Shown here: piece after piece, positions 3,886 to 28,923 of the stretch
How positions within the stretch are numbered: the stretch's first letter is position 1
Layout of the letters: the number at the start of each line of letters is the position of its first letter
Origin: Candidatus Moranbacteria bacterium RIFCSPHIGHO2_02_FULL_40_12b
Lineage (GTDB): Bacteria; Patescibacteriota; Minisyncoccia; Moranbacterales; 2-12-FULL-40-10
DNA length: 34,936 nt
NCBI GenBank assembly: GCA_001784725.1
Contig: MFRX01000009.1
Location: 72,425-107,360, forward strand
Direction of reading: 5' to 3'
Notes under the pieces: model-generated
Told to the model about the DNA's origin: nothing
The model's database searches: none
The model's input: only the letters and a program-made list of their open reading frames with translations
Made by a program: the position numbers and the translations under genes

Positions 3886-4157
3886 ATAATAATGAATGAA
3901 GTCGCCAAAAGTGAGTTAAAAGATGTGAGTAATATAACAAGTATAAACAGGTTATTACTCGCTTAGTTCTATGAGATTATTAACAAAAACGCTATGAATA
4001 TAATAATACTTTGCGTGATTAATTTTAAAAATAGCATTATTACAAGAGCGAATATTTAAACAGGTTTATTTTATCAAAAAAGATAGAGCTAATAATTTTT
4101 CTTTTATGTCTTCCGTGGTGGGGGGGATAATTTTTTGATTGAGAATAATTAAAACTT

Positions 4158-5111
4158 ATGACCAGAATATTGATTACAGGAGGCGCGGGATTTATTGGAT
4201 CGGCTGTCGCTAAAAAATTAATGGACAGGGGATACAAAGTTGTCCTGTTAGATAATTTTAATGATTATTACAATCCGCGGCTCAAGCATGACCGCATCAA
4301 AAAATTTCTCAAGGGCCATAAATTCAAATTATACAAAGGCGACATACGGGATTATAAGTTGCTGGAAAAAATATTCCGGAAGGAAAAACCGGACAAAATA
4401 ATCCATTTGGCGGCGATGGCGGGAGTGCGCAGCTCTCTTTCAAATCCGAAACTTTACGCGGACGTAAATATTATGGGAAGCATAAATCTTTTGGAGCTGG
4501 CAGTGAAATATAAAATCAAAAATTTCGTTTTTGCCTCGTCTTCTTCCGTTTACGGCAACAATAAAAAAGTTCCCTTTTCCGAATCAGATCCAGTGGATAA
4601 TCCTATTTCTCCGTATGCCGCCAGCAAAAAAGCGGATGAGCTGATTGCCTATGTCTATCATCATATTTATGGTTTGAATATAACAGCGCTCCGTTATTTC
4701 ACCGTTTACGGTCCTTGGGGACGGCCGGATATGGCGTTATTTTTATTTACTGACGCCATAATCAAGGGCGAGCCGATCAATGTCTATAATTACGGAAAAA
4801 TGAGCCGCAACTTTTCTTACATTGACGATATTGTTTCCGGAACAATCACCGTTTTGGATAAATGCAAGGGCTATGGCGTAATGAATATCGGCGGTGACCG
4901 CGAAGAAACGCTGACGCGCTACATTGAAGTGTTAGAAAATTGTTTGGGTAAAAAAGCCAAGAAAAAAATGATGCCGATGCAGCCGGGCGATGTCCCGTCC
5001 ACAGTCGCGAATATCCGTAAGCTCAAAAAACTCGGATGGAAACCTACGACCAGGATTGAAAAGGGGATTAAGAATTTCGTGGAGTGGTATAATGAGTATT
5101 ATGGTATTTAA
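4158..5111 (+). CDS. NAD-dependent epimerase, UDP-glucuronate 4-epimerase-like
   Basis: TGGAGFIG, HLAAMAGVR, ASSSSVYG, YAASK, RYFTVYGPWGRPDMA and MQPGDV motifs. Confidence 0.9.
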   Translation: MTRILITGGAGFIGSAVAKKLMDRGYKVVLLDNFNDYYNPRLKHDRIKKFLKGHKFKLYKGDIRDYKLLEKIFRKEKPDKIIHLAAMAGVRSSLSNPKLYADVNIMGSINLLELAVKYKIKNFVFASSSSVYGNNKKVPFSESDPVDNPISPYAASKKADELIAYVYHHIYGLNITALRYFTVYGPWGRPDMALFLFTDAIIKGEPINVYNYGKMSRNFSYIDDIVSGTITVLDKCKGYGVMNIGGDREETLTRYIEVLENCLGKKAKKKMMPMQPGDVPSTVANIRKLKKLGWKPTTRIEKGIKNFVEWYNEYYGI

Positions 5112-5116
5112 ATTAA

Positions 5117-6421
5117 ATGATTAATGTTGTGAAAAGAAAAATTATGTCCATCGCGGAGATTTTGCATCTTAGGATTTTTGGGCATGAAATGAGTGATGAA
5201 ATGAGAAAATTTCTTGGAAATCTTTCTTGGTCTTTTTTTGGTGGTGGGATAGCTTCTGTGGCGATGCTTGCTATAAATATCATAGCAGGAAGATATATTG
5301 GACCGGAAGGATATGGAAAATATGTGCTTGTTCTTACATTGAGTCAGATATTTTTAATTCCCATCATGTTTGGTCTAGACATCGTTAGTGTAAGATCTAT
5401 AGCTAGAAGCAAGGATGAAAAAGAAAAAACAAAAAATATCTCCAGCACATTATATTTCGTTTTAACTACTCTGATTTCCTTTTCTTTACTTTTTGTTTTT
5501 ACATATAAGTTATTTGCATATAAATTTTCTATTAGTACTGCTTTATTGGAGGTTTGCTTTATTTTTACGATATTTTCTGCAATCAAGTTAGTCTCCGACT
5601 GCTTCATAAGAGGATTATATTTGTTTAAGCATCAATTTATTGGGCGAATTATTGAGGTTTGCGCGATTATTGTTGCATTTTTTATTTTTTTTATTATTAT
5701 CAAACAGCAAGATTACATGTCTTACATCTGGACGCTTATAATAGGTGCAGCGTTTTTAATAATTTTTTATTTTAAAAGTTTAATCCCATTTTTTTCCGAG
5801 TTTGATTTCAATTTACTTAAAAAACAACTTTCTTACGGAAAAATTATTTTTATTGGAACTATACTAGGAACCGGGTTTAATTCATTGGATAAATTTATTA
5901 TTACAAAAGAATTAAATATTTATCAATTAGGTATATATGGGGCTTATTTTATGGCATCAACAAATCTAATCGCTCAAGCAACTCAGATGTTTATTAATAT
6001 TTTTTTCCCAGTGGCTTCAAAATTTGAAAATAGATCTTTTTTGAAGAAACTTGATAAAATTTTTTTTATTGCGTTTATTCCTCTTTTTCTAATAATTTCC
6101 GGAATGATATTTATAATTATGAAATTATTTGGAGAGAAATATGGAGTAAATTTAAATTATGTGTTAAGTTTTGGCATTTTAGCGACTTTGCAAATTATTT
6201 TGACAATTAATGCCTCCACAATTACCGCAATTTCAAAAAAGCTTTTTAAAAAATATATTGCTTATTCTACGGCTATTAATGCTGTGCATATCGTCGCATA
6301 TGGAGTCATAATTTATTTAAAAATAGTTTCTATCCAATTAATAGTAATTCTTTTGATTGCCAATGTTTTGGTGACAATTTTTATTCAAAAAAAGATAATG
6401 AAGTTGGCCTTAAATAGCTAA
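5117..6421 (+). CDS. wzx: Oligosaccharide flippase (Wzx/MOP family)
   Basis: Many TM segments; RYIGPEGYG and LDKFII...LGIYG motifs. Confidence 0.8.
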   Translation: MINVVKRKIMSIAEILHLRIFGHEMSDEMRKFLGNLSWSFFGGGIASVAMLAINIIAGRYIGPEGYGKYVLVLTLSQIFLIPIMFGLDIVSVRSIARSKDEKEKTKNISSTLYFVLTTLISFSLLFVFTYKLFAYKFSISTALLEVCFIFTIFSAIKLVSDCFIRGLYLFKHQFIGRIIEVCAIIVAFFIFFIIIKQQDYMSYIWTLIIGAAFLIIFYFKSLIPFFSEFDFNLLKKQLSYGKIIFIGTILGTGFNSLDKFIITKELNIYQLGIYGAYFMASTNLIAQATQMFINIFFPVASKFENRSFLKKLDKIFFIAFIPLFLIISGMIFIIMKLFGEKYGVNLNYVLSFGILATLQIILTINASTITAISKKLFKKYIAYSTAINAVHIVAYGVIIYLKIVSIQLIVILLIANVLVTIFIQKKIMKLALNS

Positions 6422-6430
6422 GAAAATTGG

Positions 6431-6459
6431 TTGACTGCTTATTTTTAAGATGATAAAAT
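6431..6459 (+). promoter_or_regulatory. Sigma70 promoter, TTGACT-17-TAAAAT with extended -10 TG
   Basis: Near-consensus hexamers with exact 17-nt spacer in the 70-bp gap upstream of the SIS gene. Confidence 0.7.
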
Positions 6460-6491
6460 AAAAGAAATAAATTAACTAATTCAATCCAGCA

Positions 6492-7046
6492 ATGATTAAA
6501 AGTAATATTGAAAAAATATTAAAGGAAGTGTCCACAGTGCTTGATTTCGTGAATGAATCACAAGTAGAAATGCTAATCAGTGAGATATTAAAGGCAAAAA
6601 AAATAGTTGTTTGTGGAGCTGGTAGGGTTGGAATGGCCGTTAGAGGTTTCGGGATGCGGCTGGGACATTTAGGGTTAAATGCATATACACTTGGCGATTC
6701 TGTGGTTCCATCAGTTAGGGGTGGAGATTTATTTTTGGTCGCGTCTGGATCAGGCGAAACGCAAACGATTTATGATTTAGCAGAAATTGCAAAGAAGAAT
6801 GGCGCGCGAATAGTATTAGTGACGGGAAGTCCGGAATCTAGAATGGGAAAATTAGCTGATGTTATTGTACAACTAAGGGCGCCATCAAAAACTAATCCTA
6901 TTGAAGGTTTTTCTTCAATTCAGCCGATGACGACTTTAAATGAACAATGCTTAGGGATTTTTTTTGACGCAGTGGTACTTCTTCTTATGGAAAAAATGGG
7001 AGAAACGCACGATACGATGTGGGCAAGGCATTCTAATTTGGAATAA
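6492..7046 (+). CDS. hxlB: SIS-domain sugar-phosphate isomerase, 6-phospho-3-hexuloisomerase (HxlB/PHI)-like
   Basis: GAGRVG, MRLGHLG, SGSGET, IQPMTTLNEQ and terminal RHSNLE motifs. Confidence 0.85.
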   Translation: MIKSNIEKILKEVSTVLDFVNESQVEMLISEILKAKKIVVCGAGRVGMAVRGFGMRLGHLGLNAYTLGDSVVPSVRGGDLFLVASGSGETQTIYDLAEIAKKNGARIVLVTGSPESRMGKLADVIVQLRAPSKTNPIEGFSSIQPMTTLNEQCLGIFFDAVVLLLMEKMGETHDTMWARHSNLE

Positions 7047-7065
7047 TAAGAAAAAAAATAAAAAA

Positions 7066-7746
7066 ATGGCACAGAGAAAATTTAAAATAGCTGCATCATT
7101 AATATGCGGCGATCACGCCTCAATTAAAGATGATATAGCTGTTCTGGAAAAAGGAAAAGTTGATTACCTTCATTTTGATGTGATGGATGGTGTGTTTGTT
7201 CCAAGATACGGGCTTTACCCGGAATTATTAAAGGGCATAAAAGAAATAACGGCTATTCCCATTGATGTTCATATGATGACAGAAGAGCCGGCAAGATATA
7301 TTAAGGAATTTGCCGAAGCAGGAGCTGATATCATTGCCGTGCATATTGAAGCATGCAAGCACCTTCATCATACGTTAAAACTTATTCGAGACGCGGGAGT
7401 AAAGGCCGGAGTGGTATTGAATTACGCGACTCCATTAAGTGCTTTAGATTATATTATGGATGATATAGATATGGTTGAATTAATGGCTATAAATCCCGGA
7501 ATTGTCGGCCATAAATTAATTACAGGAACTATGAAAAAAATTGCCGATTTGCGCAAGAAGATAGACGAGTCAGGTAAAAATATTTTTATTGAGATTGATG
7601 GCGGCGTCACTCCGGAAAGTGCCCCAGAAATGGTTCGTGCCGGAGCTGATGTGCTTGTGTGCGGAACATCCGTAATATATAAAAAAGAAAAACCGTTAGA
7701 TGAAAAAATTAAAGAATTGCGGGAGTTGATAAATAGCAAACAATAA
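7066..7746 (+). CDS. rpe: Ribulose-phosphate 3-epimerase family protein (Rpe/AlsE-like)
   Basis: HFDVMDGVFVP, DVHMM, MAINPG and IEIDGG motifs. True start is ATG 7066, not the track start 6964. Confidence 0.85.
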   Translation: MAQRKFKIAASLICGDHASIKDDIAVLEKGKVDYLHFDVMDGVFVPRYGLYPELLKGIKEITAIPIDVHMMTEEPARYIKEFAEAGADIIAVHIEACKHLHHTLKLIRDAGVKAGVVLNYATPLSALDYIMDDIDMVELMAINPGIVGHKLITGTMKKIADLRKKIDESGKNIFIEIDGGVTPESAPEMVRAGADVLVCGTSVIYKKEKPLDEKIKELRELINSKQ

Positions 7747-7758
7747 GAATAGTTTTCT

Positions 7759-9339
7759 ATGTATAAAGTCCTAATAACAACATCCGGAACAGGTTCGCGT
7801 TTGGGCGACTTGACTAAGTATACAAATAAGGGATTAGTCAGAATCGGAAAAAAACCGGTTTTGTCTTATATTATTGAAACTTATCCTAAAAACACGGAGT
7901 TTGTCATTACTCTTGGATATTTTGGAAATCAAGTCAGGGATTTTTTGGGATTAGCATATCCAGACAAAAAATTTACTTTTGTGAATGTGGATAAATATGA
8001 AGGTGCGGGAAGTAGTTTGGGATATTCTATGCTAAAAGCGGAAAAATATTTGCGTTGCCCTTTTATTTATCATGCTTCAGATACAATAATTACAGAATCC
8101 GTTCCTGCCCCGAGTCACAATTGGTCAGGAGGGTTTAAAGGAGAAGGATCTTCAAATTACGCCTCATTTGATACTCTCAATGGCAGAATTCAGCAGATAT
8201 ATTATAAGGGAGAATCAATTAGTCCTGATTTTCTACATATTGGATTAGTAGGGATAAAAAATTACGATAAGTTTTGGAGTGCAATGAAGGTTCTTTATAA
8301 AAAAAATCCAAATGATAGTACGCTTGGGGATGTTGGCGCTATCAATAAAATGCTAAAAGATGGAGTAGATTTTAAGGTTAAAAAATTTAAAGAATGGCAT
8401 GATACTGGAAATGTGGAAACACTACATGAAACCAAAAATAAAATACGGGATTCCTTTCGCATTTTAGATAAAGCGGATGAATCCATTTTTATTTTTGACA
8501 AGTTTGTGATTAAATTTTTTGCCGATGAGAAAATGGTCAGCGATCGTGTGGTAAGAGGTAAAATACTAAAAGGACTAGTGCCGGAGATAGATGGTCATAA
8601 GAAAAATTTTTATAAGTACAAGTATGCCGACGGCCATCTTTTTTCAAAGGTTGCGACGCCTTATAATTTTGAAGATTTTCTTAAATGGACCGAAAGGGAA
8701 TTATGGAAGAAAACTAAAGAAATAAGCCCGCAAAAATTCAGAAAAATATGCTACGATTTTTATTACAAAAAAAGCATCGAAAGAATAAATAAATTTCTTT
8801 CTTCTAGATCAGTCAAAGACCAAAGTAATATCATAAATGGAGAAAAAGTTCCTTCAATAAAAGATATAATAAAAGAAATTAATTTTCTTTGGTTGTGTGA
8901 TGGAGAACAAAGTAATTTTCACGGAGATTTTATATTGGATAATATAATCAAGACAAGAAATGGATATGCTTTATTGGATTGGAGACAAAATTTCGGAGGA
9001 TTATTGAGGTCAGGAGATAAATACTATGATTTATCAAAATTAAACCATAATTTAACCGTTAACCATGGAATTATAAATAGAAACTTATTCACCATAAATA
9101 TAAAAGGCAATATTATAGAGTGTGATATTTTACGCAAAGATAATCTAGTCCAATGCCAGAATGTTTTATTTGAATTTTTAGCGAAAAAAGGCTATGATAT
9201 GAAAAAAGTCAGATTGTTAACCGCTCTGATTTGGCTAAATATGTCTCCATTGCACCACCATCCATTTGACTTGTTTTTATTTTATTTTGGGAAATTAAAT
9301 TTATGGCGAGAATTAAAAAAAATAAAGCAAAGAAAATAA
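7759..9339 (+). CDS. Bifunctional nucleotidyltransferase / APH-choline-kinase-like phosphotransferase
   Basis: N-terminal GTGSRLGDLTKYTNKGL and WHDTGN (NTP_transferase). C-terminal HGDFILDNI, LLDWR and YYDLSKL (kinase-like fold). Confidence 0.8.
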   Translation: MYKVLITTSGTGSRLGDLTKYTNKGLVRIGKKPVLSYIIETYPKNTEFVITLGYFGNQVRDFLGLAYPDKKFTFVNVDKYEGAGSSLGYSMLKAEKYLRCPFIYHASDTIITESVPAPSHNWSGGFKGEGSSNYASFDTLNGRIQQIYYKGESISPDFLHIGLVGIKNYDKFWSAMKVLYKKNPNDSTLGDVGAINKMLKDGVDFKVKKFKEWHDTGNVETLHETKNKIRDSFRILDKADESIFIFDKFVIKFFADEKMVSDRVVRGKILKGLVPEIDGHKKNFYKYKYADGHLFSKVATPYNFEDFLKWTERELWKKTKEISPQKFRKICYDFYYKKSIERINKFLSSRSVKDQSNIINGEKVPSIKDIIKEINFLWLCDGEQSNFHGDFILDNIIKTRNGYALLDWRQNFGGLLRSGDKYYDLSKLNHNLTVNHGIINRNLFTINIKGNIIECDILRKDNLVQCQNVLFEFLAKKGYDMKKVRLLTALIWLNMSPLHHHPFDLFLFYFGKLNLWRELKKIKQRK

Positions 9340-9806
9340 ATCCCAAGTTTTTGGTTTTTGACGTGGATGGTGTTTTTACAACCGGCCCTTTTTTATATAC
9401 GGTTAACGGAAAATTTGCCAAGACATTTGGTCCTCATGATAATGACGGGATAAAGATGATTAAAAATAAAATTAAAATTTGCGCTATTTCGGCTGACAAG
9501 AGGGGGTTTGAGATAACAAAAAAAAGAATTCAGGAGGACATGAAAATACCCCTAATCCTAGTAAATGAAAAAGAGCGACTGGATTGGTTTAAGAATAATT
9601 TCAAAAATCTAAAAGAAGAAGTTATCTATATGGGAGATGGAATCCATGATGCAGAAATTTTTGAGTATGTTTGTTATAGCATTGCTCCAAATAACGCTTT
9701 CTATTTGGCAAAAAATAAAGCCAGTTATGTTACTAATGCCAAGAGCGGAGAAGGCGCAGTGGCAGAAGCCTGTATTCATGTATTAAAAATATTTTTATCA
9801 ATTTAA
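9303..9806 (+). CDS. HAD phosphatase, KdsC/YrbI (subfamily IIIA)-like
   Basis: FDVDGVFT, YMGDGIHD and SGEGAVAE motifs. Confidence 0.85.
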   Translation: MARIKKNKAKKINPKFLVFDVDGVFTTGPFLYTVNGKFAKTFGPHDNDGIKMIKNKIKICAISADKRGFEITKKRIQEDMKIPLILVNEKERLDWFKNNFKNLKEEVIYMGDGIHDAEIFEYVCYSIAPNNAFYLAKNKASYVTNAKSGEGAVAEACIHVLKIFLSI

Positions 9807-9820
9807 TTTTTTAAAAAACA

Positions 9821-10798
9821 ATGGAAGAAATAAATATTACTGAAGGGTTAATCAATATGAATGATTCTGTATCAGCGAAAGAAACTGATTGGGTTCAATC
9901 ATGCGAAGATGCGGCTCAAAATGACGAGTTTTTTAAGACATTTCGATCTTCAAAGGCCTTTCAGCGTGTAATTGAGGGAACACCAAGAGTTGGTGGTATT
10001 TGGAACTTAAAAAGGTTATTGAAAGATAAAAATTTTTTAAAAACCCTGCCATTACTTCAAAAATCTGACATTATTGGACTTCCATTAAATACAATACAAT
10101 TTAAATTTAATGAAAAAAGCTACAATCTTTCCCCAACAACTATTCGATATGCAAATAATGCCTCGAACTGCGTATCTTTTTTTGGCAAAGATATTTTTTT
10201 AGGGAATACCGATATTTTTGAAATTGGCGCTGGATATGGAGGTGAATTTAAGGTTTTTAATGATTATTCAGTAGCTTTATTTAATAAAAAATTAGATACA
10301 AAATGGCATATATATGACCTTCCATCCTCAATCGCCGTTATTAAAAAATTTCTATCACATTTTAATTATCTGCCAAATTTTAATGAGTTAAAAAAGGATT
10401 CAACAGAAAAAAACTCTAACAGCCTAGTTATTTCAAACGGAGCTTTTTCTGAAATGACGGGGTCATTGCTAGATGAATATTTTGAAGCTGTTATTTCGCC
10501 TGCAAAATACGGCTATTTTATTTCTAATTTTGAGATCCAGTCAGAACCTTTTGGCGGTTGGAATACTAAAAAATTTATTATGCGCTTAAAAAAGTGTGGG
10601 AAGAATGACGTTGCTATTTTACCTGCTGAAAAATATTTGAGCTACTTCGATCAACAAGCTGGGAGTAAACTAATTGTTTTTGGGCACACTGCCTTAAAAG
10701 ACGATAAATCGAAAATTAAAGACATAATTTTAATAAAATTTATAGAATTTCTAGATAGTTGTGAGGATTTTTTTAAAAATAAATTTTTAAAAAACTAA
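9821..10798 (+). CDS. Putative sugar O-methyltransferase
   Basis: SPTTIRY, FEIGAGYGG, IYDLP and ISNGAFSE motifs. Confidence 0.7.
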   Translation: MEEINITEGLINMNDSVSAKETDWVQSCEDAAQNDEFFKTFRSSKAFQRVIEGTPRVGGIWNLKRLLKDKNFLKTLPLLQKSDIIGLPLNTIQFKFNEKSYNLSPTTIRYANNASNCVSFFGKDIFLGNTDIFEIGAGYGGEFKVFNDYSVALFNKKLDTKWHIYDLPSSIAVIKKFLSHFNYLPNFNELKKDSTEKNSNSLVISNGAFSEMTGSLLDEYFEAVISPAKYGYFISNFEIQSEPFGGWNTKKFIMRLKKCGKNDVAILPAEKYLSYFDQQAGSKLIVFGHTALKDDKSKIKDIILIKFIEFLDSCEDFFKNKFLKN

Positions 10799-10804
10799 CT
10801 TGGT

Positions 10805-11938
10805 ATGAAGAAAATATTAAGAAATAAAAGTATTCTAACTGGAAAAAATAAGCTAGAACAACTTTATGAATTTAAGAAGTTTCCTGTTTTTATGGGTTGC
10901 GTAGATAATTTAGATGATAAAAACGATATCAATGTTGATATGAGCTTTAGTATTTGTAGAGATACTGGGATAATTCAATTAGATGAATTATTACCGCTCG
11001 ATTTGATTTACCAAAATCAACATAACGATGGCGTAGGTAAAATTTGGCAAGAACATTATGTTTCTTTTGCAAAATTTTTAGAAAAATTTAATCCTAAGGA
11101 AGTATTGGAAATTGGAGGAGCTAATGATTTTATTGCAAATTATTATTTAGAGCGAAACCCAAAAACCACCTGGACAATTATTGAGCCCCATCCGCTTTTC
11201 AAAAATAAAAAAATAAAAATCATAAAAAGGTGGTTTGATGAATCGTTTGTGCTAAAATCAAAAAAAATTGATACAATAATGCATTCTCATGTATTAGAGC
11301 ATACATACGAACCAATAAAATTTATTAAGCATATCGCAAAATTCTCAGAAGAAGGGTCGCGACATATTTTTACAATCCCCAATATGGTTGAACAACTTTC
11401 TAGAAAATATACTAATTGCTTGAACTTTGAGCATACATTATTTTTGGCAGAGCCATTTATAGATTATATTCTAAGAATTAATGGCTTTAAAATATTAAAA
11501 AAAAGTTATTTTCAGGATCATAGTATATTTTATGCCACTGAAAAAATTAAATTAAATAAAGAAAAAATAACTTTACCAAAAAAATATTCTCAATACAAGA
11601 AACTTTTTTCCGAATTTGTTAAATATCATCAGGATTTAATTAATTCTCTTAATAAAAAAATAGACAAATTTGACGGAGATATTTATTTATTTGGGGCCCA
11701 TATTTTCTCCCAATACTTATTAGAATTTGGATTAAATAAGAAAAAAATCAAGGGGATTTTAGACAATTCAGATCTAAAAAATGGAAAAAGACTATACGGC
11801 ACCAATTTAATAGTTAAAAAACCAGAAACATTAAAAGGAAGAAAGAATGTCGCGATTATTTTAAAAGTTGGAGCCTATCGAAATGAAATTATAAAACAAG
11901 TAAAGAAAATTAATCCGAATATTGTTATTTTTGAATAA
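10805..11938 (+). CDS. SAM-dependent methyltransferase resembling NDP-sugar C-methyltransferases
   Basis: VLEIGG, HSHVLEH and FEH, plus C-terminal YLFGA...LDNSDLKNGKRLYGT...YRNEI matching the C-methyltransferase C-terminal domain pattern. Confidence 0.7.
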   Translation: MKKILRNKSILTGKNKLEQLYEFKKFPVFMGCVDNLDDKNDINVDMSFSICRDTGIIQLDELLPLDLIYQNQHNDGVGKIWQEHYVSFAKFLEKFNPKEVLEIGGANDFIANYYLERNPKTTWTIIEPHPLFKNKKIKIIKRWFDESFVLKSKKIDTIMHSHVLEHTYEPIKFIKHIAKFSEEGSRHIFTIPNMVEQLSRKYTNCLNFEHTLFLAEPFIDYILRINGFKILKKSYFQDHSIFYATEKIKLNKEKITLPKKYSQYKKLFSEFVKYHQDLINSLNKKIDKFDGDIYLFGAHIFSQYLLEFGLNKKKIKGILDNSDLKNGKRLYGTNLIVKKPETLKGRKNVAIILKVGAYRNEIIKQVKKINPNIVIFE

Positions 11939-11941
11939 AAT

Positions 11942-13084
11942 ATGGTTACTGCAATTTGCAATATATACATTAATTCTGAGGCAAAATTAGGTCTTTTTAA
12001 AGAGACCTTTCCTTTTGTTTATCCTATTAGTGATAATTGGCTTGTTTATATTAGGGGAAAATTTAAGCAAGAAGCAATCGAGCATATCAGAAGCTCATTT
12101 AACGATGTCGAGGACAGGTGTATATTCTTTGAAAGTCTTTATGATGATGATTGGGCGAAAAGCACTACGAGGATGCTGGAAAAATCCAAATACGATTACA
12201 TATATGTTTTTTTAGAGGATCATTTCTTATTAAAACCCATTGATCATTTTAAGAAGGTGATACGAGATATGATAAAAAATAATATAGATTATTTCCAATA
12301 CTCTTTTTTTAACATTGGACTACCCATTTATTCTATAGAACACTTATATCCTGATGTGACAGACTATCTTTGCGCATTTGAGTTTGATTCAGAAAAATTA
12401 CCAGTATTGCGAAAAACAAACAAGGCATTTTATCCATATTCACTCACTAGCGTTTCGTCGAAAAAGTATTTTAATCATCTTTTAAGCATTGAAAATAAAT
12501 ACATTATCAAGGTTCCGATTTTAATACAGGCTTTAATGGAGAATATCTTCTTTTTCTATCCAAGGAATCGTGTTTTTTGGCTTACGATAAATAAATTATT
12601 CTCAATTATCAATATTCGGTTTGTTATTTATCCCCGTGCCACCCCGTTTAATTTAGAAAAATCATTATTTGATTGTGATGAAGAATTATTGCCGATTAAG
12701 GTGGGCGGACTGAAAGAAGAAATTTTTGCAAATTGGGATGATGACAACAAATTAAGCAATTCATCCTTAATTAAACGTGGTTTATATCCTAAATACTTCC
12801 GTATTGACAGTCAGGAAAAGCCAAAAATTAACGAGGGTAGAGAATATATTCTAAATCAGGGTCAGAACAGTAATCATCAATATTGCCCTGATGTCAGCAG
12901 GGTTATGAAAATACCAAAAAAACATATTTACGTCAAAAAAGGAACTCTTAAAATATCATCAGAAAATGAATCATTTATATTAAATTCGGGGCAGTCAGTA
13001 TGGGTTACTGCAAACATTCCCCACTCTTTTTTTGCTTGTGAAGATTGTGTTTTTCATTTATATTTAGATAGTGGTTTACAGTAG
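11942..13084 (+). CDS. Hypothetical protein: GT-A-like N-terminal region plus C-terminal cupin-like domain
   Basis: YIYVFLEDHFL acidic motif; C-terminal IYVKKGTL...LNSGQSVWVTANIPHSF cupin pattern. Confidence 0.55.
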   Translation: MVTAICNIYINSEAKLGLFKETFPFVYPISDNWLVYIRGKFKQEAIEHIRSSFNDVEDRCIFFESLYDDDWAKSTTRMLEKSKYDYIYVFLEDHFLLKPIDHFKKVIRDMIKNNIDYFQYSFFNIGLPIYSIEHLYPDVTDYLCAFEFDSEKLPVLRKTNKAFYPYSLTSVSSKKYFNHLLSIENKYIIKVPILIQALMENIFFFYPRNRVFWLTINKLFSIINIRFVIYPRATPFNLEKSLFDCDEELLPIKVGGLKEEIFANWDDDNKLSNSSLIKRGLYPKYFRIDSQEKPKINEGREYILNQGQNSNHQYCPDVSRVMKIPKKHIYVKKGTLKISSENESFILNSGQSVWVTANIPHSFFACEDCVFHLYLDSGLQ

Positions 13085-13119
13085 AAAAATATAAAATTCA
13101 ATTTTTAAAGATAAAAAAT

Positions 13120-14097
13120 ATGAAAAAAGTAGCACTTATAACAGGTATCTTAGGTCAAGATGGTCCCTATCTCGCGAAACTTCTTCTGAAAAATAATTAT
13201 GAAGTTTATGGATTAATTAGGCGATATACGAATCCAAATTTCAGTAATTTAGATTATTTGGGAATTACAGATAAAGTTAATTATATATCGGGCGATATGA
13301 CTGACGAAGCATCTTTAATTAATATCATTAAAACAGTAAGGCCTGATGAAGTATATAATCTCGCAGCGCAGTCATTTGTTGGAGCATCATGGGATCAGGC
13401 AAAAGTGACTAGCGAAATAAATGCCCATGGAGTATTATATTTGCTAAATGCTATAAAGAATTTTGCGCCTAGTGCGAAGTTTTATCAAGCGTCAACTAGT
13501 GAAATGTTCGGGAATAGCCATAAAAATGGGCTTCAGACAGAAGAGACACCATTTCATCCACGAAGTCCGTATGCAATTTCGAAATTATATGCATATTGGA
13601 TGGCGATAAATTTTAAAGAAAGTTACGGAATGTTTTGCGCAAATGGAATACTTTTTAATCACGAGTCTCCAATTAGGGGCATAGAATTTGTTACACGAAA
13701 AATAACTGATGGGGTAGCAAGAATTAAGCTTGGATTAGCAAATGAGATTAGACTGGGAAATTTAGATAGTAAAAGAGATTGGGGGTTTGCCGGAGATTAT
13801 GTTGAGGCAATGTGGTTGATACTTCAGCAAAAAGAGCCAGACAATTATATAATTTCAACTGGTGAAACCCATTCAATTAGAGATTTCCTCGACGCTGCCT
13901 TTAATCATGTCGGAATTAAAAACTGGAAAAAGTATGTTAAATTAGACCCGAGATTTAAACGCCCAGCAGAACTTTTTGCATTGCACGGAAAATCAGATAA
14001 GGCGAGAAGAAAACTTAACTGGAAACCAAAAATCAAATTTGAAAAATTAGTTAAAATGATGATAGATGCGGATATAAAAAGATTGTCGAAAAAATAA
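13120..14097 (+). CDS. gmd: GDP-mannose 4,6-dehydratase
   Basis: ITGILGQDG, YNLAAQSFV, QASTSEMFG, PRSPYAISK, FNHESP, FVTRKI and RDWG motifs. Confidence 0.95.
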   Translation: MKKVALITGILGQDGPYLAKLLLKNNYEVYGLIRRYTNPNFSNLDYLGITDKVNYISGDMTDEASLINIIKTVRPDEVYNLAAQSFVGASWDQAKVTSEINAHGVLYLLNAIKNFAPSAKFYQASTSEMFGNSHKNGLQTEETPFHPRSPYAISKLYAYWMAINFKESYGMFCANGILFNHESPIRGIEFVTRKITDGVARIKLGLANEIRLGNLDSKRDWGFAGDYVEAMWLILQQKEPDNYIISTGETHSIRDFLDAAFNHVGIKNWKKYVKLDPRFKRPAELFALHGKSDKARRKLNWKPKIKFEKLVKMMIDADIKRLSKK

Positions 14098-14100
14098 ATT

Positions 14101-14934
14101 ATGAATTTTAGAGACAAGACAATTATAAAAACCGACCCTTTTTTATCCGTTGTTATGGCGGTGCATAATAGAGAAAAATATTTGCGAGAAGCTATTGAGA
14201 GTGTCTTGAATCAAACATATGAAAATTTCGAATTTTTTCTTATAAATGATGGATCAAATGATAATTCGTGGGAAATTATCAAATCATATGCAGAAATTGA
14301 CAGTCGAATAGTGTGCATAAATAATCATAAAAATCTCGGACAATCATTAGCAAGAAATGTGGCAATTAAAAAAGCACAGGGTGAATATGTTATCATTGCA
14401 GATTCCGATGATATTTGTTTGCCAAGTCGTTTTGAAAATCAGTTAAAATATTTCAAAGAACACAGTTTAGAAGTTGATGTTTTAGGTTCTTTCTTTTGTC
14501 TATTTACTGATGGTGACATCAATAAATGCGAATCAGTACCAGTAAGTATTTCTGATTTAAATGACGGTAAGCCGCCGGTTCATAATCCAACGTGTATGAT
14601 TAAACGAAGTATTTTTTCTAATAATGGCTATTATGACTCTAAATATGATAACGCCGAGGATTATGAATTGTGGTCACGTTGGTCTTCAAGAGGTGTTCGT
14701 TTTCATAATCTCCATGAAGTTTTATATAAAAAAAGAAATCACAGTGGTTGCGTGAGTACTGAAAGGATAAGGCATCAAAATTATCTAATGACTAAAATAA
14801 ATATAATCGCAATAATTAAATATCATAGGCGATTTACAATAGCTGGATACCTGCGCATTCTTGAGCAGCTATTCTATTTTATTTATTTATTGCTAAGATT
14901 AGATAAGGTATACAAAAAGAGTGGAAAATATTAA
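14101..14934 (+). CDS. Glycosyltransferase family 2
   Basis: SVVMAVHN, INDGSND, DSDD and AEDYELW motifs. Confidence 0.9.
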   Translation: MNFRDKTIIKTDPFLSVVMAVHNREKYLREAIESVLNQTYENFEFFLINDGSNDNSWEIIKSYAEIDSRIVCINNHKNLGQSLARNVAIKKAQGEYVIIADSDDICLPSRFENQLKYFKEHSLEVDVLGSFFCLFTDGDINKCESVPVSISDLNDGKPPVHNPTCMIKRSIFSNNGYYDSKYDNAEDYELWSRWSSRGVRFHNLHEVLYKKRNHSGCVSTERIRHQNYLMTKINIIAIIKYHRRFTIAGYLRILEQLFYFIYLLLRLDKVYKKSGKY

Positions 14935-14951
14935 AAAACATAATTATTCTC

Positions 14952-15689
14952 ATGGATAATAAAAAAATATTTGATAATTATTTAACGAATCATTATTCTA
15001 AGTGTGAAAAAACAGATTTCAACAACGATAATGAGGTGCTTGTATTACTTGATAAAAATAAGATTCCAATAGATTATAATCTAGGGTCGTTATTTAAGGA
15101 AAAAATAAGCAAAAAAAGCAAAATCCTTGACTTAGGATGTGGCTATGGAAGTTTTTTGTATTTTTTGCGATCGCATTATTATGAAAATGTGACTGGCATT
15201 GACATATCAACTGAAGAAATAGCAATTTGCAAGAAACTTTTCAAGACATATGAATTTTATCATGAGGATATTTTTGCCTATATTCAGAATACTAAAGAGA
15301 GATTTGACGTACTTTATTTGTCACACGTTCTAGAACATATTGATAAAAAACAACTTTTTGAATTTTTGGAAGGCGCAAATAATATTTTAAATGATAATGG
15401 CTTTTTTATTCTCGTGGTTCCAAATAGTGCTGCTTACTTCAATTCTGCGGCAAATCGATACGGAGACCTAACTCACGAGGTCGGGTTTACTGATAAGAGC
15501 TTAAGGCAAGCACTGATGGTAACAAAATTTGATAATATTAAAATTAAAAATTATTTTGGTGTTGGAAATTTTTGGTTGAATATTGTGAGAAAAGTGGCAC
15601 TTTTTTTATTTGAACTATTTATTCAGATTTTAGGTTATGAAAAGCAAGAAATACACACACCAAGCATTCTAGTTATCGCTAGGAAATAA
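14952..15689 (+). CDS. Class I SAM-dependent methyltransferase
   Basis: ILDLGCGYG, GIDIS, SHVLEH, VPN and RYGDLTH motifs. Confidence 0.9.
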   Translation: MDNKKIFDNYLTNHYSKCEKTDFNNDNEVLVLLDKNKIPIDYNLGSLFKEKISKKSKILDLGCGYGSFLYFLRSHYYENVTGIDISTEEIAICKKLFKTYEFYHEDIFAYIQNTKERFDVLYLSHVLEHIDKKQLFEFLEGANNILNDNGFFILVVPNSAAYFNSAANRYGDLTHEVGFTDKSLRQALMVTKFDNIKIKNYFGVGNFWLNIVRKVALFLFELFIQILGYEKQEIHTPSILVIARK

Positions 15690-15699
15690 GATATATTCA

Positions 15700-16734
15700 T
15701 CAATCTTTTATCATAAGATTATATACGTCTACTGCCGCGGATCCCCAATCAAAATATTTAGCCCTTTCTAGGCTGTTTTTAATTGCAGTATCTCGATACT
15801 TTTCGTCAAGTATAATTTTTTTACACTCTAATGCCATTTCAATCGGATCAAGTGGGTTCACGGTAGTTTGACTTAGCCCAATTAGTTCTTTCATTGGATC
15901 TCGATTAGATGTCACCACCGGACATCCACATGCCATAGCTTCTGCTATTGGAATGCCAAAACCCTCAAGTAGGGAGGGGAATAATAGAAGTTTTGCGCCA
16001 GAGTATATTTGTGGTAATTTTTTTTCATCTATGTAATCCGTAAAAACAACACTATCTGTAAGTTGTAACTTTTCTATATAGCAAAGTGTTTGCTTTCTGT
16101 TTGTAGGATTTACTCGACCAATTTTTAATAACTTTAAATTTGGGAAATCCTTTTTAAGTATTTGAAAAGATGCTAAAATATTCTCCATATTTTTCCTTGG
16201 CTCCTCAGACCCAACAGAAAGAATGTAGTCAAATAAATACAGTTTTTTCTTAGAAGGCGTGAATAGATCGTGGTCTAATCCACCATATACAACTTTACAT
16301 TTCTTTGTGTCAACGCCCAATGAAGCAAGTTGCGATAAGGAAAAATTAGAAATACATATAATGCCATCAAGTTTATTTAAAACATTTTGATAGGATATGA
16401 ATGGAAGGTATTTATAATAAAAAGGATCTTGCTCGTAGTGATAAAAAATAACAAATTTTTTATTGGGGATAATTATTGACCCAAGTAAATTGAACGATAA
16501 TGGATCTGTAAATAAAACAATATCATCATGCCTAATCATGCACGTTGCCTTGATAGTATTGATTATTTCTGAAATGAAATTAATTAGAGAGTTTTTAAAA
16601 GGCTTGTTATCCAAGAGAATAACTCTTACAGCAACACCTCCTTTTTTTAGATTAAGGATAATAGACTCACTATATTTATTTATAGCGTCTGTCCTTTTTT
16701 CAACGATCACTGTTATCTTTTCTCTGCTAGGCAT
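15700..16734 (-). CDS. Glycosyltransferase family 4 (mannosyltransferase-like)
   Basis: VGSEEPRKN and FPSLLEGFGIPIAEAMACG motifs. Confidence 0.9.
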   Translation of the reverse strand: MPSREKITVIVEKRTDAINKYSESIILNLKKGGVAVRVILLDNKPFKNSLINFISEIINTIKATCMIRHDDIVLFTDPLSFNLLGSIIIPNKKFVIFYHYEQDPFYYKYLPFISYQNVLNKLDGIICISNFSLSQLASLGVDTKKCKVVYGGLDHDLFTPSKKKLYLFDYILSVGSEEPRKNMENILASFQILKKDFPNLKLLKIGRVNPTNRKQTLCYIEKLQLTDSVVFTDYIDEKKLPQIYSGAKLLLFPSLLEGFGIPIAEAMACGCPVVTSNRDPMKELIGLSQTTVNPLDPIEMALECKKIILDEKYRDTAIKNSLERAKYFDWGSAAVDVYNLMIKD

Positions 16735-16785
16735 AGCTATATTGATAAACGGATTATATTGTTCCTCAGTACTTCCATTAGCTTA

Positions 16786-17625
16786 TTAGTTTCTAGTGAT
16801 TTTAATAAATAAAAACTCATTGCATCCTATGCTTCTTGCGGGTATGGTTTTGGCGCACATAAAATCAAGATTCTTAAAATGATTAACAATAGTTTCAGTA
16901 CTTGCATATTCGTACGGATATCCGCCCAGCCAGTCTTTGATATCTGTAAAAAAATTCATCCCCCGTAGTGATTGATAATTACGAATATAAGTTATCGGGT
17001 TAATGAAGTGAGAGGCGAGCCCACAAACAAAGTAAGCGATATATATTCCCTCCATTATTCTTTTTGTTATCCGGGAACTCTTGTTATATAACCGTTTAAC
17101 TTTTAGCCAAAAAGATGACGATCCTTCGAAAAAAAGCTTATTATCATTATATATGGCTAAATAAAGCTGGCTTAATTCATGCGTCAGAAGAGTTATATTT
17201 TCAAAAGCTTTATGCATATCCCCAGTATGATGCAAAACTCCCCATGAATAAACAATATCAAATTGTCCCAATGATTTTATAAAATTTTCATCCAGAGCGG
17301 ATCCCTTTATAATTTCCCAACGCGGAGGATTATTTTGTTTTTCTTTAAGATGCTTCACGCAGGTAACTGAAAAATCATCTACATCCACACTGACTACTTT
17401 GGAAGCGCCAATGAGATAAGCCGAAAGGGAAAATAATCCGCTGCCGCAACCAATATCCACAAAAGTTTTACCTTTTATTTTTTCCTCTCCGCCAAGGAAA
17501 TTAACCAATGATTTTTTGGCTTCATTGATTCTTTTATCATCCAATGTTTTCAAAAAGGATTGCCAATTTTTTCCAAAGCTGAAGTGATTTTTATTATTAT
17601 ATGAATTTTCGTATAGCTCAGCCAT
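16786..17625 (-). CDS. Class I SAM-dependent methyltransferase
   Basis: FSFGKNW, DIGCGSGLFS, YSWGVLHHTG and DWLGGYPYE motifs. Confidence 0.9.
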   Translation of the reverse strand: MAELYENSYNNKNHFSFGKNWQSFLKTLDDKRINEAKKSLVNFLGGEEKIKGKTFVDIGCGSGLFSLSAYLIGASKVVSVDVDDFSVTCVKHLKEKQNNPPRWEIIKGSALDENFIKSLGQFDIVYSWGVLHHTGDMHKAFENITLLTHELSQLYLAIYNDNKLFFEGSSSFWLKVKRLYNKSSRITKRIMEGIYIAYFVCGLASHFINPITYIRNYQSLRGMNFFTDIKDWLGGYPYEYASTETIVNHFKNLDFMCAKTIPARSIGCNEFLFIKITRN

Positions 17626-17627
17626 TT

Positions 17628-18740
17628 TTATATTTTAATCAAATAATTTATTGTGTTAGAAAATTTTTGCGCGATTTTATTTAATCCAAACTGGTTCTGG
17701 ATTTTTTCTTTGGAGTTTTGTCCTATTTTTATTCTAATTTCCTGATTTTCAATTATTTTTTTCAATGAGTTTTTAATCTCCGCGCTATTTTTTATTTGAA
17801 CCAGAATTCCTGTTTTGTTATCCTCAATTAAGCCCTTATTTTCCGGAATGTTGGTTGTAATAATAGGCAATCCGCTTGCCATTGCCTCCATAATCGCATT
17901 ACTCATTCCCTCAAATAGGGTTGGAAAAACAAAAATATCGGAAATTTTTAGCAATTTTGGAACATCATTTCTTTTGCCTAGAAATAGTATATTATTTTTT
18001 GACTGGTAATTTTCTATTTGTTTTAATAAATTTTCTTTTTCTTCTCCATCGCCAACAATCAATAACTTCACATTATTATTTTCTTTATAAATATTTTCAA
18101 ACGCCTCCAATAGATATTTATGTCCTTTGTTGATATGTAAATTAGCTACGCAAATTATGGCTGTTTCCTCCGGCCGTATGCCTAAATTTTCTCTCAAAAC
18201 CTCGTCCCTTTCAATTTTATCATAAAAATCAACATCCACTCCGTTCGGAATGACGGTTATTTTTTCCCGCTTGACCCCGATATTTTCCACATAAAAATTT
18301 TTGACGGATTCGGAATTTGCCAAATAATTTTTCACAAAATATTTTGTTAGTTTCTCAAAAAGGCGCGCCGGCCAGTAATTTCTATGATTATAAGTGGTTC
18401 GCAGAAAAGGAATTATTTTTATTTTAGTAGTGGCTTGTAAAAATATTCTTCCAATTGCATCGGCGTGGAATAAGTAAGTTATTATAACATCCGGATTTAT
18501 TTTTTTTATTTCTTTCAATAATCTTAAATATGCCGGCAAGTCAAAAAAACCGCCTTGTTGAATGTTTATGACGGAAATATTTTCATTTTCAAATTTACCG
18601 GCCAGTTCGCCGCGCTTTTTTAAAGTGATAATAGCGTGCTCAAAATCAGAAAGAAGCGGAAGTGTTCTAAGGAGCATATTCTCACATCCACCGTTATCTA
18701 AGGATTGAATCAAGTGAATTATTTTTTTCTTATTGCTCAT
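17628..18740 (-). CDS. Glycosyltransferase family 4
   Basis: GGCE, IPNGVD, KGH and EGMSNAIMEAMASG motifs; ATG 18740 preferred as start. Confidence 0.9.
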   Translation of the reverse strand: MSNKKKIIHLIQSLDNGGCENMLLRTLPLLSDFEHAIITLKKRGELAGKFENENISVINIQQGGFFDLPAYLRLLKEIKKINPDVIITYLFHADAIGRIFLQATTKIKIIPFLRTTYNHRNYWPARLFEKLTKYFVKNYLANSESVKNFYVENIGVKREKITVIPNGVDVDFYDKIERDEVLRENLGIRPEETAIICVANLHINKGHKYLLEAFENIYKENNNVKLLIVGDGEEKENLLKQIENYQSKNNILFLGKRNDVPKLLKISDIFVFPTLFEGMSNAIMEAMASGLPIITTNIPENKGLIEDNKTGILVQIKNSAEIKNSLKKIIENQEIRIKIGQNSKEKIQNQFGLNKIAQKFSNTINYLIKI

Positions 18741-19824
18741 AGTTTCCAATACAAGTTATCCCGGCTTCCGGATGTTCGGATGACTTTATATTTTTTAAAT
18801 TTGCATCTCGGAACCATTTTTCAATTTCTTCAAATTTATAATAATTGCTTTTTGGCGTGGCGATTATGTCAAAAGTGTCATTAAGCTTCATATTAAAAGG
18901 AAAATTGGCGTAATAAGAGAAGGGAACAGCGCGGGCAATTTTTTTAAATCCCAAAAAATTAAAAAAGTGAGTTATCCAATTTAAACCCTCCGCGATTATT
19001 GCCGGTAAATAAGAGAATTTGTACAAAACCGGCTTAGGAAGTCCTTTCAATAAGTCCCTGGCGGGTTCATAAAAATAAATCGCACGCTTATTATTTCTGC
19101 GATTATAAACCCAAATCGCCATAATTCCGCCACTTTTTAAAGTTTTAGGCAGTTTAGAAAAACCCTCTTGCGGTTTAGGCAGATGATGAAGAACTCCAAT
19201 TGAATAAGCTAAATCAAAAACTCCTGAAAAAGGCATATTATAAATATCCGCTTGAATTATACAAGCATTCCCCAAACCCTTTGTTAATTTATAAGCAAAT
19301 TCAACGCTTTCTCCTAAATCAGAACCAAATGCTAGTTTCGCGCCACAGCTAATTGCATGTTTGGTAAATCTGCCAGAACCACATCCTATATCAAGAGTCA
19401 TTTTCCCTTTAATATCCTCCTCTTTGATATTGGGACCAATAAAGTGCAGAAAGTTTTGTTTCTCGAAATTACTTTCTTTGTAAATATTATTCCACTCATA
19501 AGCGAAACTCTCCGCTGTTTTCTCCTGATGGTCCAAAAATTTATCCAAATCATTTATTTTATCAATTTCCTTCTTCCAGTCAATTTTTATTTTTTCCGGT
19601 AATTTTTCTTCAAATTTTTTGAAAAATTCATAATGCGATTGAAGAAGATTTGTCTTGAGTTTATTAACTAGAATACGCGGGATTCCATTGATAATTGGAT
19701 ACCAATTCTCATTGTTATATAAAATTCCGGAAGTTACATGGCCATTTTCCTCCGTAAAAATACTTAACTCAAATTTTTTTAAGTTAAGCGGGTCTATTAA
19801 ATATTCTACAAATTTTTTTCTCAT
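18730..19824 (-). CDS. SAM-dependent methyltransferase with N-terminal Trm112-like module
   Basis: Start ATG 19824 (MRKKFVEYLIDP...YPIINGIPRIL), then LDIGCGSGRF and YSIGVLHH. Confidence 0.85.
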   Translation of the reverse strand: MRKKFVEYLIDPLNLKKFELSIFTEENGHVTSGILYNNENWYPIINGIPRILVNKLKTNLLQSHYEFFKKFEEKLPEKIKIDWKKEIDKINDLDKFLDHQEKTAESFAYEWNNIYKESNFEKQNFLHFIGPNIKEEDIKGKMTLDIGCGSGRFTKHAISCGAKLAFGSDLGESVEFAYKLTKGLGNACIIQADIYNMPFSGVFDLAYSIGVLHHLPKPQEGFSKLPKTLKSGGIMAIWVYNRRNNKRAIYFYEPARDLLKGLPKPVLYKFSYLPAIIAEGLNWITHFFNFLGFKKIARAVPFSYYANFPFNMKLNDTFDIIATPKSNYYKFEEIEKWFRDANLKNIKSSEHPEAGITCIGNYEQ

Positions 19825-19828
19825 TTTT

Positions 19829-21718: not shown

Positions 21719-21722
21719 AAAA

Positions 21723-21750
21723 TAGTATTTAGTATTTAGTATTTAGTATT
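21723..21750. repeat. Perfect 7-nt tandem repeat (TAGTATT)x4
   Basis: Read directly; overlaps the GT4 stop codon and ends just upstream of the asnB start. Confidence 0.9.
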
Positions 21751-27602: not shown

Positions 27603-27608
27603 AAGAAA

Positions 27609-28916: not shown

Positions 28917-28923
28917 AAACTAG

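Follow-up and report, generated by a model that had tools for sequence, protein, structure and literature searches.

A candidate nucleotide-sugar module of Patescibacteria that links a sugar-phosphate isomerase and epimerase to a nucleotidyltransferase-kinase fusion and a phosphatase

A stretch of 34,936 nucleotides (nt) from the genome of Candidatus Moranbacteria bacterium RIFCSPHIGHO2_02_FULL_40_12b (contig MFRX01000009.1, positions 72,425 to 107,360 of the forward strand; hereafter the window, at its full length) carries a glycan locus with four consecutive genes that encode a SIS-domain isomerase, an Rpe-type sugar-phosphate epimerase, a nucleotidyltransferase-kinase fusion (NTK) and a HAD phosphatase. 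The host genome is a draft of 0.94 Mb in 46 contigs (94% complete), and the named relatives of the window proteins belong to Patescibacteria, or candidate phyla radiation (CPR), including Moranbacteria, Microgenomates, Gribaldobacteria and Pacebacteria. An earlier note on this DNA proposed that paralogues of central-metabolism enzymes had been recruited in this cassette for the synthesis of a nucleotide-activated unusual sugar. This article describes the four genes, their recurrence in other genomes and metagenomes and the pathway that they may constitute.

The cassette genes lie on the plus strand and are tightly packed, with gaps of 19 and 12 nt followed by a 37-nt overlap between NTK and HAD, and they correspond to those described in the earlier note. 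The first gene (SIS, 6492–7046) is predicted to encode an isomerase of the HxlB or 6-phospho-3-hexuloisomerase (PHI) type: its product scores 194.7 bits against TIGR03127 (HxlB), above the equivalog cut-off of 160 (194.2 bits in the whole-genome search), and 129.5 bits to Bacillus subtilis YckF (1m3s), and it is 42–77% identical to the cassette SIS proteins of other loci. The second gene (Rpe, 7066–7746), with its start at the ATG at 7066 rather than at the TTG at 6964, encodes a full-length barrel that scores 218.8 bits against PF00834 and 224.6 bits against TIGR01163 (cut-off 212.6; model positions 1–211 of 211), and its translation displays an H-x-D, H and D pattern which is taken to be the metal/catalytic set. 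A specific likeness to the allulose-6-phosphate epimerase AlsE, as had been suggested, is not supported, since the score against the AlsE model NF007266 is 180.5 bits versus a cut-off of 271 and the protein is more similar to Escherichia coli Rpe (40.3% identity) than to AlsE (32.3%). The best PDB match is 1rpx (179.7 bits), and the AlsE structure 3ct7 reaches 128.8 bits.

The third gene (7759–9339) encodes NTK, in which an N-terminal nucleotidyltransferase (NT) domain (approximately residues 1–230) precedes a C-terminal domain of the APH/choline-kinase fold (approximately residues 236–526; DNA 8464–9336), as judged from a weak PF00483 match and from predicted folds. The full-length AlphaFold2 model has a predicted local distance difference test (pLDDT) score of 87.9 and a separate model of residues 236–526 one of 94.6. 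Foldseek places the NT half closest to LicC (1jyk, E 1.1e-13, template modelling (TM) score 0.82 by target), together with many sugar-1-phosphate nucleotidyltransferases, and MurU is also among its matches (27.4 bits by profile, 4y7u by fold). The nearest solved relatives of this domain by profile are cytidylyltransferases (LicC, RfbF and inositol-1-phosphate cytidylyltransferase) and there is, for this reason, a weak lean towards CTP as the nucleotide donor. The model of the kinase half resembles choline, glucosamine and ethanolamine kinases, APH(2''), FN3K (fructosamine-3-kinase) and maltokinase. PF01636 (APH) does not match the window NTK and is annotated on 4 of 120 homologues among the matches listed. 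A G-x-G-x-R-L type loop near the N-terminus is conserved in 15 of 15 homologues, and the kinase residues H388-G389-D390, N395 and D407 are invariant in 15 homologues; H-G-D-x-x-x-x-N presumably represents the catalytic loop and the downstream D a metal-binding residue. The fusion family is large and old, with 617 clusters at 50% identity (E ≤1e-30) and a two-domain length kept down to about 34% identity. Longer forms of 677–897 residues also occur (P0079, P0152, P0188, P0212, P0238, P0250, P0253), and P0079 carries a TylF O-methyltransferase domain (PF05711).

The fourth gene (9303–9806) encodes a KdsC-like (C0-type) HAD phosphatase. By score the protein appears to be a relative of the KdsC subfamily and not a member of it: it reaches 77 bits against TIGR01670 (KdsC/YrbI subfamily; cut-off 106.95) and 68.7 bits against the KdsC equivalog NF007019 (cut-off 208), with 2p9j as best PDB match (60.8 bits) and KdsC entries at 41–53 bits. 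On the basis of the invariant kinase motifs, the conserved NT loop and the matching model folds, the cassette enzymes look active.

The recurrence of the cassette was examined in 85 related loci, of which 5 come from genomes of the phylum and 80 from metagenome contigs (the best 80 of 568 confirmed). Loci were scored by tblastn, the queries being the window proteins and members of two additional families that clustering had revealed. SIS and/or Rpe lie within 4 kb of NTK in 44 of the 85 loci (both in 39), an alternative pair of proteins described below is found in 34, no locus contains both pairs and seven contain neither. When the 38 loci with short flanks are excluded (full flank: at least 1.5 kb upstream and at least 2 kb downstream), 47 remain: 25 belong to class A, all with SIS, Rpe and a KdsC-like HAD next to NTK, 21 carry the alternative pair (class B), none has both and one (L038) has neither. 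Collapsing NTKs at 90% identity or more gives 43 groups with a full-flank locus (24 class A, 18 class B, none with both, one with neither). Two loci, L020 and L098, are without a full NTK open reading frame and were left off the NTK tree. The four families thus co-occur in many unrelated contigs, as the earlier note would have them do. Two gene orders are found in class A, SIS-Rpe-NTK-HAD and NTK-HAD-SIS-Rpe (10 loci), and the persistence of the linkage through rearrangement argues for a functional connection.

Within the phylum the distribution of NTK appears patchy, and in a sample of 401 phylum genomes no NTK was found in genomes of the same order or class among the matches listed. Genome G074 retains the arrangement of the window (flippase-SDR-SIS-Rpe-NTK-HAD-C-methyltransferase-cupin protein-GT2-methyltransferase, where SDR denotes short-chain dehydrogenase/reductase and GT2 glycosyltransferase family 2), and its cassette genes, starting with SIS, are 51–73% identical to those of the window, its flippase 46% and its SDR 26%. 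The order in G159 is SIS-Rpe-(NT fragment)-NTK-HAD-C-methyltransferase, and G126 and G282 carry parts of the module at contig ends. A scan of genome contigs with one protein returned only three matches, all from WOR-3, which are distant (27% identity) and confined to the NT domain; a plasmid search gave no match. Additional copies of the NT domain are also seen. The NT fragment of G159 (L017 11978–12667; G159:C1:45917-46666) is a partial second copy between Rpe and the full NTK, 46–47% identical over query residues 3–250 and with 2 TAG stops, and 8 loci contain stand-alone NT paralogues of 240 residues that share about 40% identity with the NT domain (e.g., L049 14014–14736).

In class B, SIS and Rpe are replaced by a non-homologous pair consisting of a GatZ/KbaZ/class-II-aldolase-like protein and a small cupin that resembles phosphomannose isomerase (PMI). 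The GatZ-like protein has about 330 residues, compared with about 420 in GatZ/KbaZ, and scores 29–42 bits against PF08013; its PDB matches are 3txv (27.7 bits), 2fiq (25.2 bits) and KbaY (18.3 bits), and it is also near class II ketose-bisphosphate aldolases. The cupin has about 115 residues, and the proteins that it resembles most are small mannose-6-phosphate or lyxose isomerases and the PMI domain of GMP/PMI enzymes. Both proteins are present in 18 of the 21 full-flank class B loci, and in L063 the GatZ-like gene lies just past the 4-kb limit. A HAD protein is likewise found in 18 of these 21 loci, as the KdsC-like HAD in 9 and as a different small HAD in 9. Three of the four functions (epimerase-like, isomerase-like and phosphatase) thus appear to be filled by unrelated proteins in class B.

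The two classes are intermixed in the NTK tree, and the clearest comparison is between L049 (class A) and L063 (class B), whose NTKs are 84.7% identical and whose flanking genes are mostly syntenic and 72–90% identical (one aligned pair 47%). L063 has the cupin at the position occupied by SIS and Rpe in L049, with the GatZ-like gene inserted before the C-methyltransferase. Since near-identical NTKs reside in syntenic loci that differ in their front end, the two pairs appear to be interchangeable, and the swap would represent a non-orthologous displacement, with NTK receiving the same, or a closely similar, substrate from either front end.

The cupin and GatZ-like pair was also observed in two other settings. 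A paralogous NTK subfamily, 33% identical, is accompanied by a cupin and a GatZ-like protein in L018 (9027–13248) and L019 (6791–11272). These cassettes have a shikimate-dehydrogenase-like gene added between NTK and HAD, which suggests a variant with a reduced product (an alditol or deoxy sugar?); the KdsC-like HAD is present in L019 and was not detected in L018. The other setting, L114, corresponds to MH319741.1 8025–25551 (reverse complement), deposited as "Marine virus AG-345-E15" (Caudoviricetes, an unannotated single-cell amplified genome). Its class B cassette (approximately 7314–10417) comprises a small HAD, a PMI-like cupin, an NTK 46.5% identical to that of the window and a GatZ-like protein; SDR genes, another small HAD and another cupin lie nearby.

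The composition of the front end bears on the possibility of salvage, in which NTK would activate a free sugar that the cell imports from its host or surroundings, in the manner of AmgK-MurU or Fkp, with SIS, Rpe and HAD only loosely connected to it. In its favour, free sugars are the substrates of APH-fold sugar kinases such as NahK, AmgK and maltokinase, the NT domain has MurU among its matches and these bacteria rely on partners for many metabolites. However, HAD and the SIS-Rpe pair accompany NTK in 25 of 25 class A loci each and, where the pair is missing, a second full isomerase/epimerase/phosphatase set substitutes for it, which argues for an obligate de novo front end. In addition, no transporter is conserved within the module across the related loci. 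Salvage is therefore regarded as very unlikely.

Another explanation would be that SIS and Rpe are ordinary enzymes of the ribulose monophosphate (RuMP) and pentose phosphate pathways and stand beside an unrelated activation enzyme by coincidence. Both proteins exceed the equivalog cut-offs of HxlB and Rpe, and the host genome contains a single rpe and a single hxlB, both in the cassette. However, linkage of the four genes is seen in 24 independent NTK groups and with two gene orders, and the pathways in which housekeeping enzymes of these types would act were not found in the host genome. Searches for transketolase (PF00456), RpiB (PF02502), RpiA (PF06026) and 6-phosphogluconate dehydrogenase (PF00393) gave no match there, and the sole TIGR03128 (HxlA) match is one of 19.8 bits inside the Rpe gene. 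By tblastn with HxlA from the same phylum nothing was found in the host genome or in the 86 cassette sequences (the window and the 85 loci), so that the lack of hxlA noted earlier for the window extends to the 0.94-Mb genome and to the related cassettes. The Rpe and HxlB homologues are consequently without a pentose phosphate or RuMP context. Phosphoglucose isomerase and a true GlmS were not found in the host genome either; a class II fructose-bisphosphate aldolase and one phosphohexomutase are present. Central carbon metabolism of the host looks very reduced, with no source or sink detected for ribulose-5-phosphate and xylulose-5-phosphate, and fructose phosphates are plausible metabolites.

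The phylogenetic evidence points in the same direction. The 36 cassette Rpes form one clade, apart from the second type of Rpe of the phylum (in a tree with two reference sequences). A second rpe, for which the earlier note had proposed to look, was not found in the host itself; three other genomes with a cassette Rpe do keep a divergent one elsewhere (95–121 bits, 22–26% identical to the window Rpe), and two NTK-bearing genomes in which no cassette Rpe was detected have only the divergent type. Proteins above the HxlB cut-off occur in 7 of the 401 phylum genomes. Three of these are cassette genomes, and in the other four the protein is 33–37% identical to the window SIS, adjoins HxlA in three of four cases and in one also adjoins RpiB; these genuine HxlA-HxlB pairs represent a different lineage. 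The cassette SIS and Rpe thus seem to form a separate lineage, associated with NTK and HAD and distinct from the housekeeping-type Rpe and the RuMP HxlB of the phylum. Coincidence is, on this evidence, disfavoured and the least probable of the explanations considered, hardly to be expected. Comparative genomics supports well the idea that central-metabolism paralogues may have been recruited for an unusual activated sugar, through the linkage, the distinct lineages and a host lacking the usual pathways; the parts of the original proposal that concerned self-promotion (see below) and likeness to AlsE are not supported.

Taken together, the cassette is probably a conserved and mobile module for the de novo synthesis of a nucleotide-activated rare sugar, which would start from a central hexose phosphate (most likely fructose-6-phosphate) and serve the surrounding glycan locus. 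The PHI-type isomerase and the Rpe-type epimerase would shift the carbonyl position and change one stereocentre of the sugar phosphate, the kinase domain of NTK would place a second phosphate on the hydroxyl to be activated, the KdsC-like HAD would take off the original terminal phosphate and the NT domain would couple the remaining phosphate to a nucleoside monophosphate. The route would accordingly run from a hexose-6-phosphate through a remodelled sugar-6-phosphate, a bisphosphate and a monophosphate at the activated position to the NDP-sugar, which could then be tailored by the downstream O- and C-methyltransferases and transferred by the GT-A-like and GT2 proteins. In this scheme the identities of the sugar and of the nucleotide are inferences, as is the sequence in which kinase and phosphatase act.

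With regard to the sugar, the alternative front end provides a hint. GatZ and KbaZ are described as catalysing a C4 epimerisation that converts fructose-6-phosphate to tagatose-6-phosphate (as outlined in PMC11907403), and the fact that a GatZ-like member of such a 4-epimerase family takes the place of SIS and Rpe points to chemistry of the 4-epimer (tagatose) series, an option missing from the sugars listed in the earlier note. If each enzyme is assumed to keep the chemistry of its family, the only product common to both front ends is a 4-epimeric hex-3-ulose-6-phosphate, or a tagatose-series sugar in equilibrium with it, and the two pairs would be order-swapped routes to one intermediate. 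In class A, PHI would first convert fructose-6-phosphate to 3-hexulose-6-phosphate and Rpe would then epimerise C4, which in the 3-ketose is placed relative to the phosphate as is C3 in ribulose-5-phosphate; in class B, the GatZ-like protein would first form tagatose-6-phosphate and the cupin would then isomerise it. A shared intermediate of this type is speculative and rather doubtful as it stands, although it fits the near-canonical scores of SIS and Rpe. If it were true, the module would activate a keto-sugar, whose free carbonyl would explain the frequent C-methyltransferase, and Patescibacteria, together with the cassette-bearing record filed under a marine virus, would have a nucleotide sugar that biochemistry has not yet seen; to our knowledge, a 4-epimeric keto-sugar is not known in any glycan. 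Alternatively, one member of each pair may have drifted so that an aldohexose-6-phosphate is formed (allose or altrose via allulose-6-phosphate, in line with the earlier note, or talose or galactose via tagatose-6-phosphate). A pentulose route from ribulose- or xylulose-5-phosphate is disfavoured because no source of these compounds was found in the genome. A C-methyltransferase acting as a stand-in for HxlA was rejected as a general idea, being absent from about half of the class A loci.

The fold relatives of NTK raise a different possibility, in which the product would be a phosphodiester decoration. The kinase would act on a primary, non-anomeric hydroxyl of the ketose made by the front end, the LicC-like domain would make a CDP-ketose (or a CDP-alditol once the ketose is reduced) and a phosphotransferase would add the sugar-phosphate to the glycan, as in CDP-choline, CDP-ribitol and CDP-6-D-glucitol systems; the CDP-6-D-glucitol route is published (PMC10918830). 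In support of such a scheme, the solved proteins nearest to the two NTK domains are LicC and the choline/ethanolamine kinases, CTP-using enzymes top the profile matches of the NT domain, and a free keto group would explain the C-methyltransferase without an obligatory dehydratase. The reductase of the shikimate dehydrogenase type between NTK and HAD in the 33%-identical paralogous cassette would also be accommodated. Against this scheme, no LicD-type or CDP-alcohol phosphotransferase was recognised among the profile matches of the window, a kinase and a phosphatase that together move a phosphate are a hallmark of anomeric activation (compare the heptose pathway) and the fold similarities are distant. 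Phosphodiester decoration is considered unlikely, less so than salvage or coincidence.

Several observations weigh against de novo synthesis of an activated hexose as the function of the cassette. The nearest solved relatives of both NTK domains (LicC and choline kinase) act on a non-sugar alcohol. The Pfam match of the NT domain is weak (23.4 bits against PF00483, cut-off 21.2, over residues 4–42 only), the kinase domain has no significant PDB match by sequence or by profile, and its Foldseek matches, obtained with a predicted model, have E values of 1e-5 to 1e-3 and TM scores of just 0.4–0.5. The HAD falls below the cut-off of its subfamily model, and SIS and Rpe, which pass the NCBI equivalog thresholds of ordinary HxlB and Rpe, look canonical by sequence. 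As the only copy in its genome, the cassette Rpe could conceivably serve a housekeeping role as well. The absences reported for the host genome rest on hidden Markov model searches of a 94%-complete draft, the loci were all collected through NTK, which makes the co-occurrence figures conditional on it, and few genomes of the phylum sample have the module, NTK having been found in 8 of 401 (including the host).

Among characterized systems, the closest parallel is GDP-heptose synthesis, in which a ketose-phosphate isomerase, a kinase at the activated position, a phosphatase acting on the original terminal phosphate and a nucleotidyltransferase operate in succession (as laid out in PMC10680097). 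The cassette has this four-step logic in common with it and, as had been anticipated, differs in the families employed. Its SIS is of the PHI subtype and not GmhA (TIGR00441, 20.3 bits versus 209.45; GmhA models, 17–24 versus 209–320), its HAD is KdsC-like rather than GmhB and its kinase has the APH/choline-kinase fold, whereas HddA is a GHMP kinase. Neither an HddC nor a GmhB model is among the profile matches of NTK or HAD, and orthology to GmhA, HddA, GmhB or HddC is not indicated. Moreover, kinase and nucleotidyltransferase are fused in the cassette, an extra Rpe-type epimerase is included and the substrate is probably a hexose instead of sedoheptulose-7-phosphate.

Other known systems share single components with the cassette. 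Its isomerase scores as the HxlB of the RuMP pair and resembles YckF, although no HxlA accompanies it in the genome or the loci and the true pairs of the phylum belong to the more distant lineage mentioned above. The epimerase is a full-length member of the Rpe family, nearer Rpe than AlsE, which differs from both in having no transketolase or Rpi partners in the host genome, in forming its own clade and in being always linked to SIS, NTK and HAD. The LicA/LicC and AmgK/MurU systems contain the same pair of folds as NTK, with LicC as best solved match of the NT half and choline kinases among the best matches of the kinase half. LicA is a choline kinase and LicC a CTP:phosphocholine cytidylyltransferase, and AmgK is an anomeric MurNAc kinase and MurU a uridylyltransferase. 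In those systems kinase and transferase are distinct proteins that use a free alcohol or a sugar obtained by salvage, whereas NTK unites the two in one chain and is linked to a phosphatase and to a front end predicted to remodel a sugar phosphate. The GatZ-like protein of class B, absent from the window itself, seems to be a distant and shorter member of the GatZ/KbaZ superfamily. The parts of the module therefore belong or relate to known families and what appears to be new is their combination, of which no description was found in the literature covered (subscription journals lie outside the coverage).

The cassette is embedded in a plus-strand co-directional run of eleven genes with small gaps (4158–15689), in which an SDR epimerase/dehydratase-like gene and a flippase gene precede SIS, Rpe, NTK and HAD, and methyltransferase and glycosyltransferase genes follow. 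The Wzx-type polysaccharide flippase (5117–6421; PF01943, 60.5 bits) lies directly upstream of the cassette and has a 46%-identical homologue upstream in L016. After HAD come a putative NanM-like sugar O-methyltransferase (9821–10798; TIGR04371, 35.5 bits, below the cut-off of 44), with homologues after HAD in L021 and L050, and a sugar C-methyltransferase-like protein (10805–11938; PF13489 (Methyltransf_23), 33.9 bits, and the C-terminal domain PF08484, 28.9 bits). Among the full-flank loci, 13 of the 25 in class A and 7 of the 21 in class B have a homologue of the latter at most 4 kb from NTK, and its PDB sequence search returned nothing but spurious RecA matches. The following 380-residue protein (11942–13084) is a candidate transferase with a C-terminal Cupin_2 match below the cut-off (22.4 bits) and a possibly GT-A-like N-terminal part; its structure neighbours in the ESM Atlas, based on models and regarded as a lead only, are GT2 families (TM 0.43–0.59), and a homologue lies close to NTK in 10 of the 25 full-flank loci of class A and in 3 of the 21 of class B.

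Further downstream are a GDP-mannose 4,6-dehydratase (Gmd)-like SDR (13120–14097; PF16363, 408.3 bits; TIGR01472, 405.2 bits, just under the cut-off of 415), a GT2 glycosyltransferase (14101–14934; PF00535, 127.8 bits) that is syntenic in L016 and L020, and the last gene of the run, encoding a class I S-adenosylmethionine-dependent methyltransferase (14952–15689; PF13489, 60.7 bits) with a 66.5%-identical homologue at the same position in L016. Homologues of the Gmd-like SDR are located a few kb from NTK in L024, L034, L081, L088, L094 and L096. The idea that NTK supplies GDP-mannose to this dehydratase was not adopted, as mannose needs no epimerase and Gmd-like genes are near NTK in a minority of loci. 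Elsewhere in the host genome, two other genes match PF00483 and both are RmlA-like.

A second, convergent block adjoins the run on the minus strand (15700–25006) and holds GT4 glycosyltransferases, three proteins with class I methyltransferase domains and a 629-residue protein with a glutamine-amidotransferase-like N-terminus. The glycan locus as a whole is unusually rich in methyltransferases. Its G+C content is about 0.30–0.35, and that of window positions 27000–33000 is 0.39–0.44.

The earlier note had also placed a strong internal promoter before SIS and regarded the cassette as self-promoted. A consensus match with TG before the -10 element (TTGACT-17-TAAAAT, 6431–6459, plus strand) is indeed present in the 70-nt gap 5' of SIS, the largest on the plus strand. 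The number of promoter-like sites in this AT-rich region (3900–16900) is, however, not above that expected from shuffled sequences (64 observed, 64.2 expected), and with five plus-strand sites scoring at least 10/12 in 13 kb the fall of one of them in the SIS gap is mildly notable at most. Nor is the feature conserved: across 28 related loci SIS is preceded by a gap with a median of 15.5 nt (50 nt or more in 8 of them), and a match of at least 10/12 lies within 100 nt upstream of SIS in only 2. Because such sites occur at chance level and are not kept in relatives, the cassette does not qualify as a conserved self-promoted unit and seems normally to be embedded in a longer operon.

Nucleotide-sugar pathways set which sugars a cell can display on its surface. 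The module described here is widespread (at least 568 confirmed metagenome loci; 617 NTK clusters at 50% identity) and has no characterized member, and it is present in organisms that live attached to other cells and whose surface chemistry is essentially uncharted. As proposed, it would turn a glycolytic intermediate into an activated rare hexose without need of a phosphomutase, by means of recruited enzymes of the pentose phosphate and RuMP types. The occurrence of two unrelated isomerase/epimerase pairs that serve near-identical activating enzymes represents a natural experiment. The module is of interest to glycobiology and to CPR biology, as it would probably add a new activated sugar, biocatalysts for the preparation of rare-sugar nucleotides and a marker of glycan diversity in Patescibacteria.

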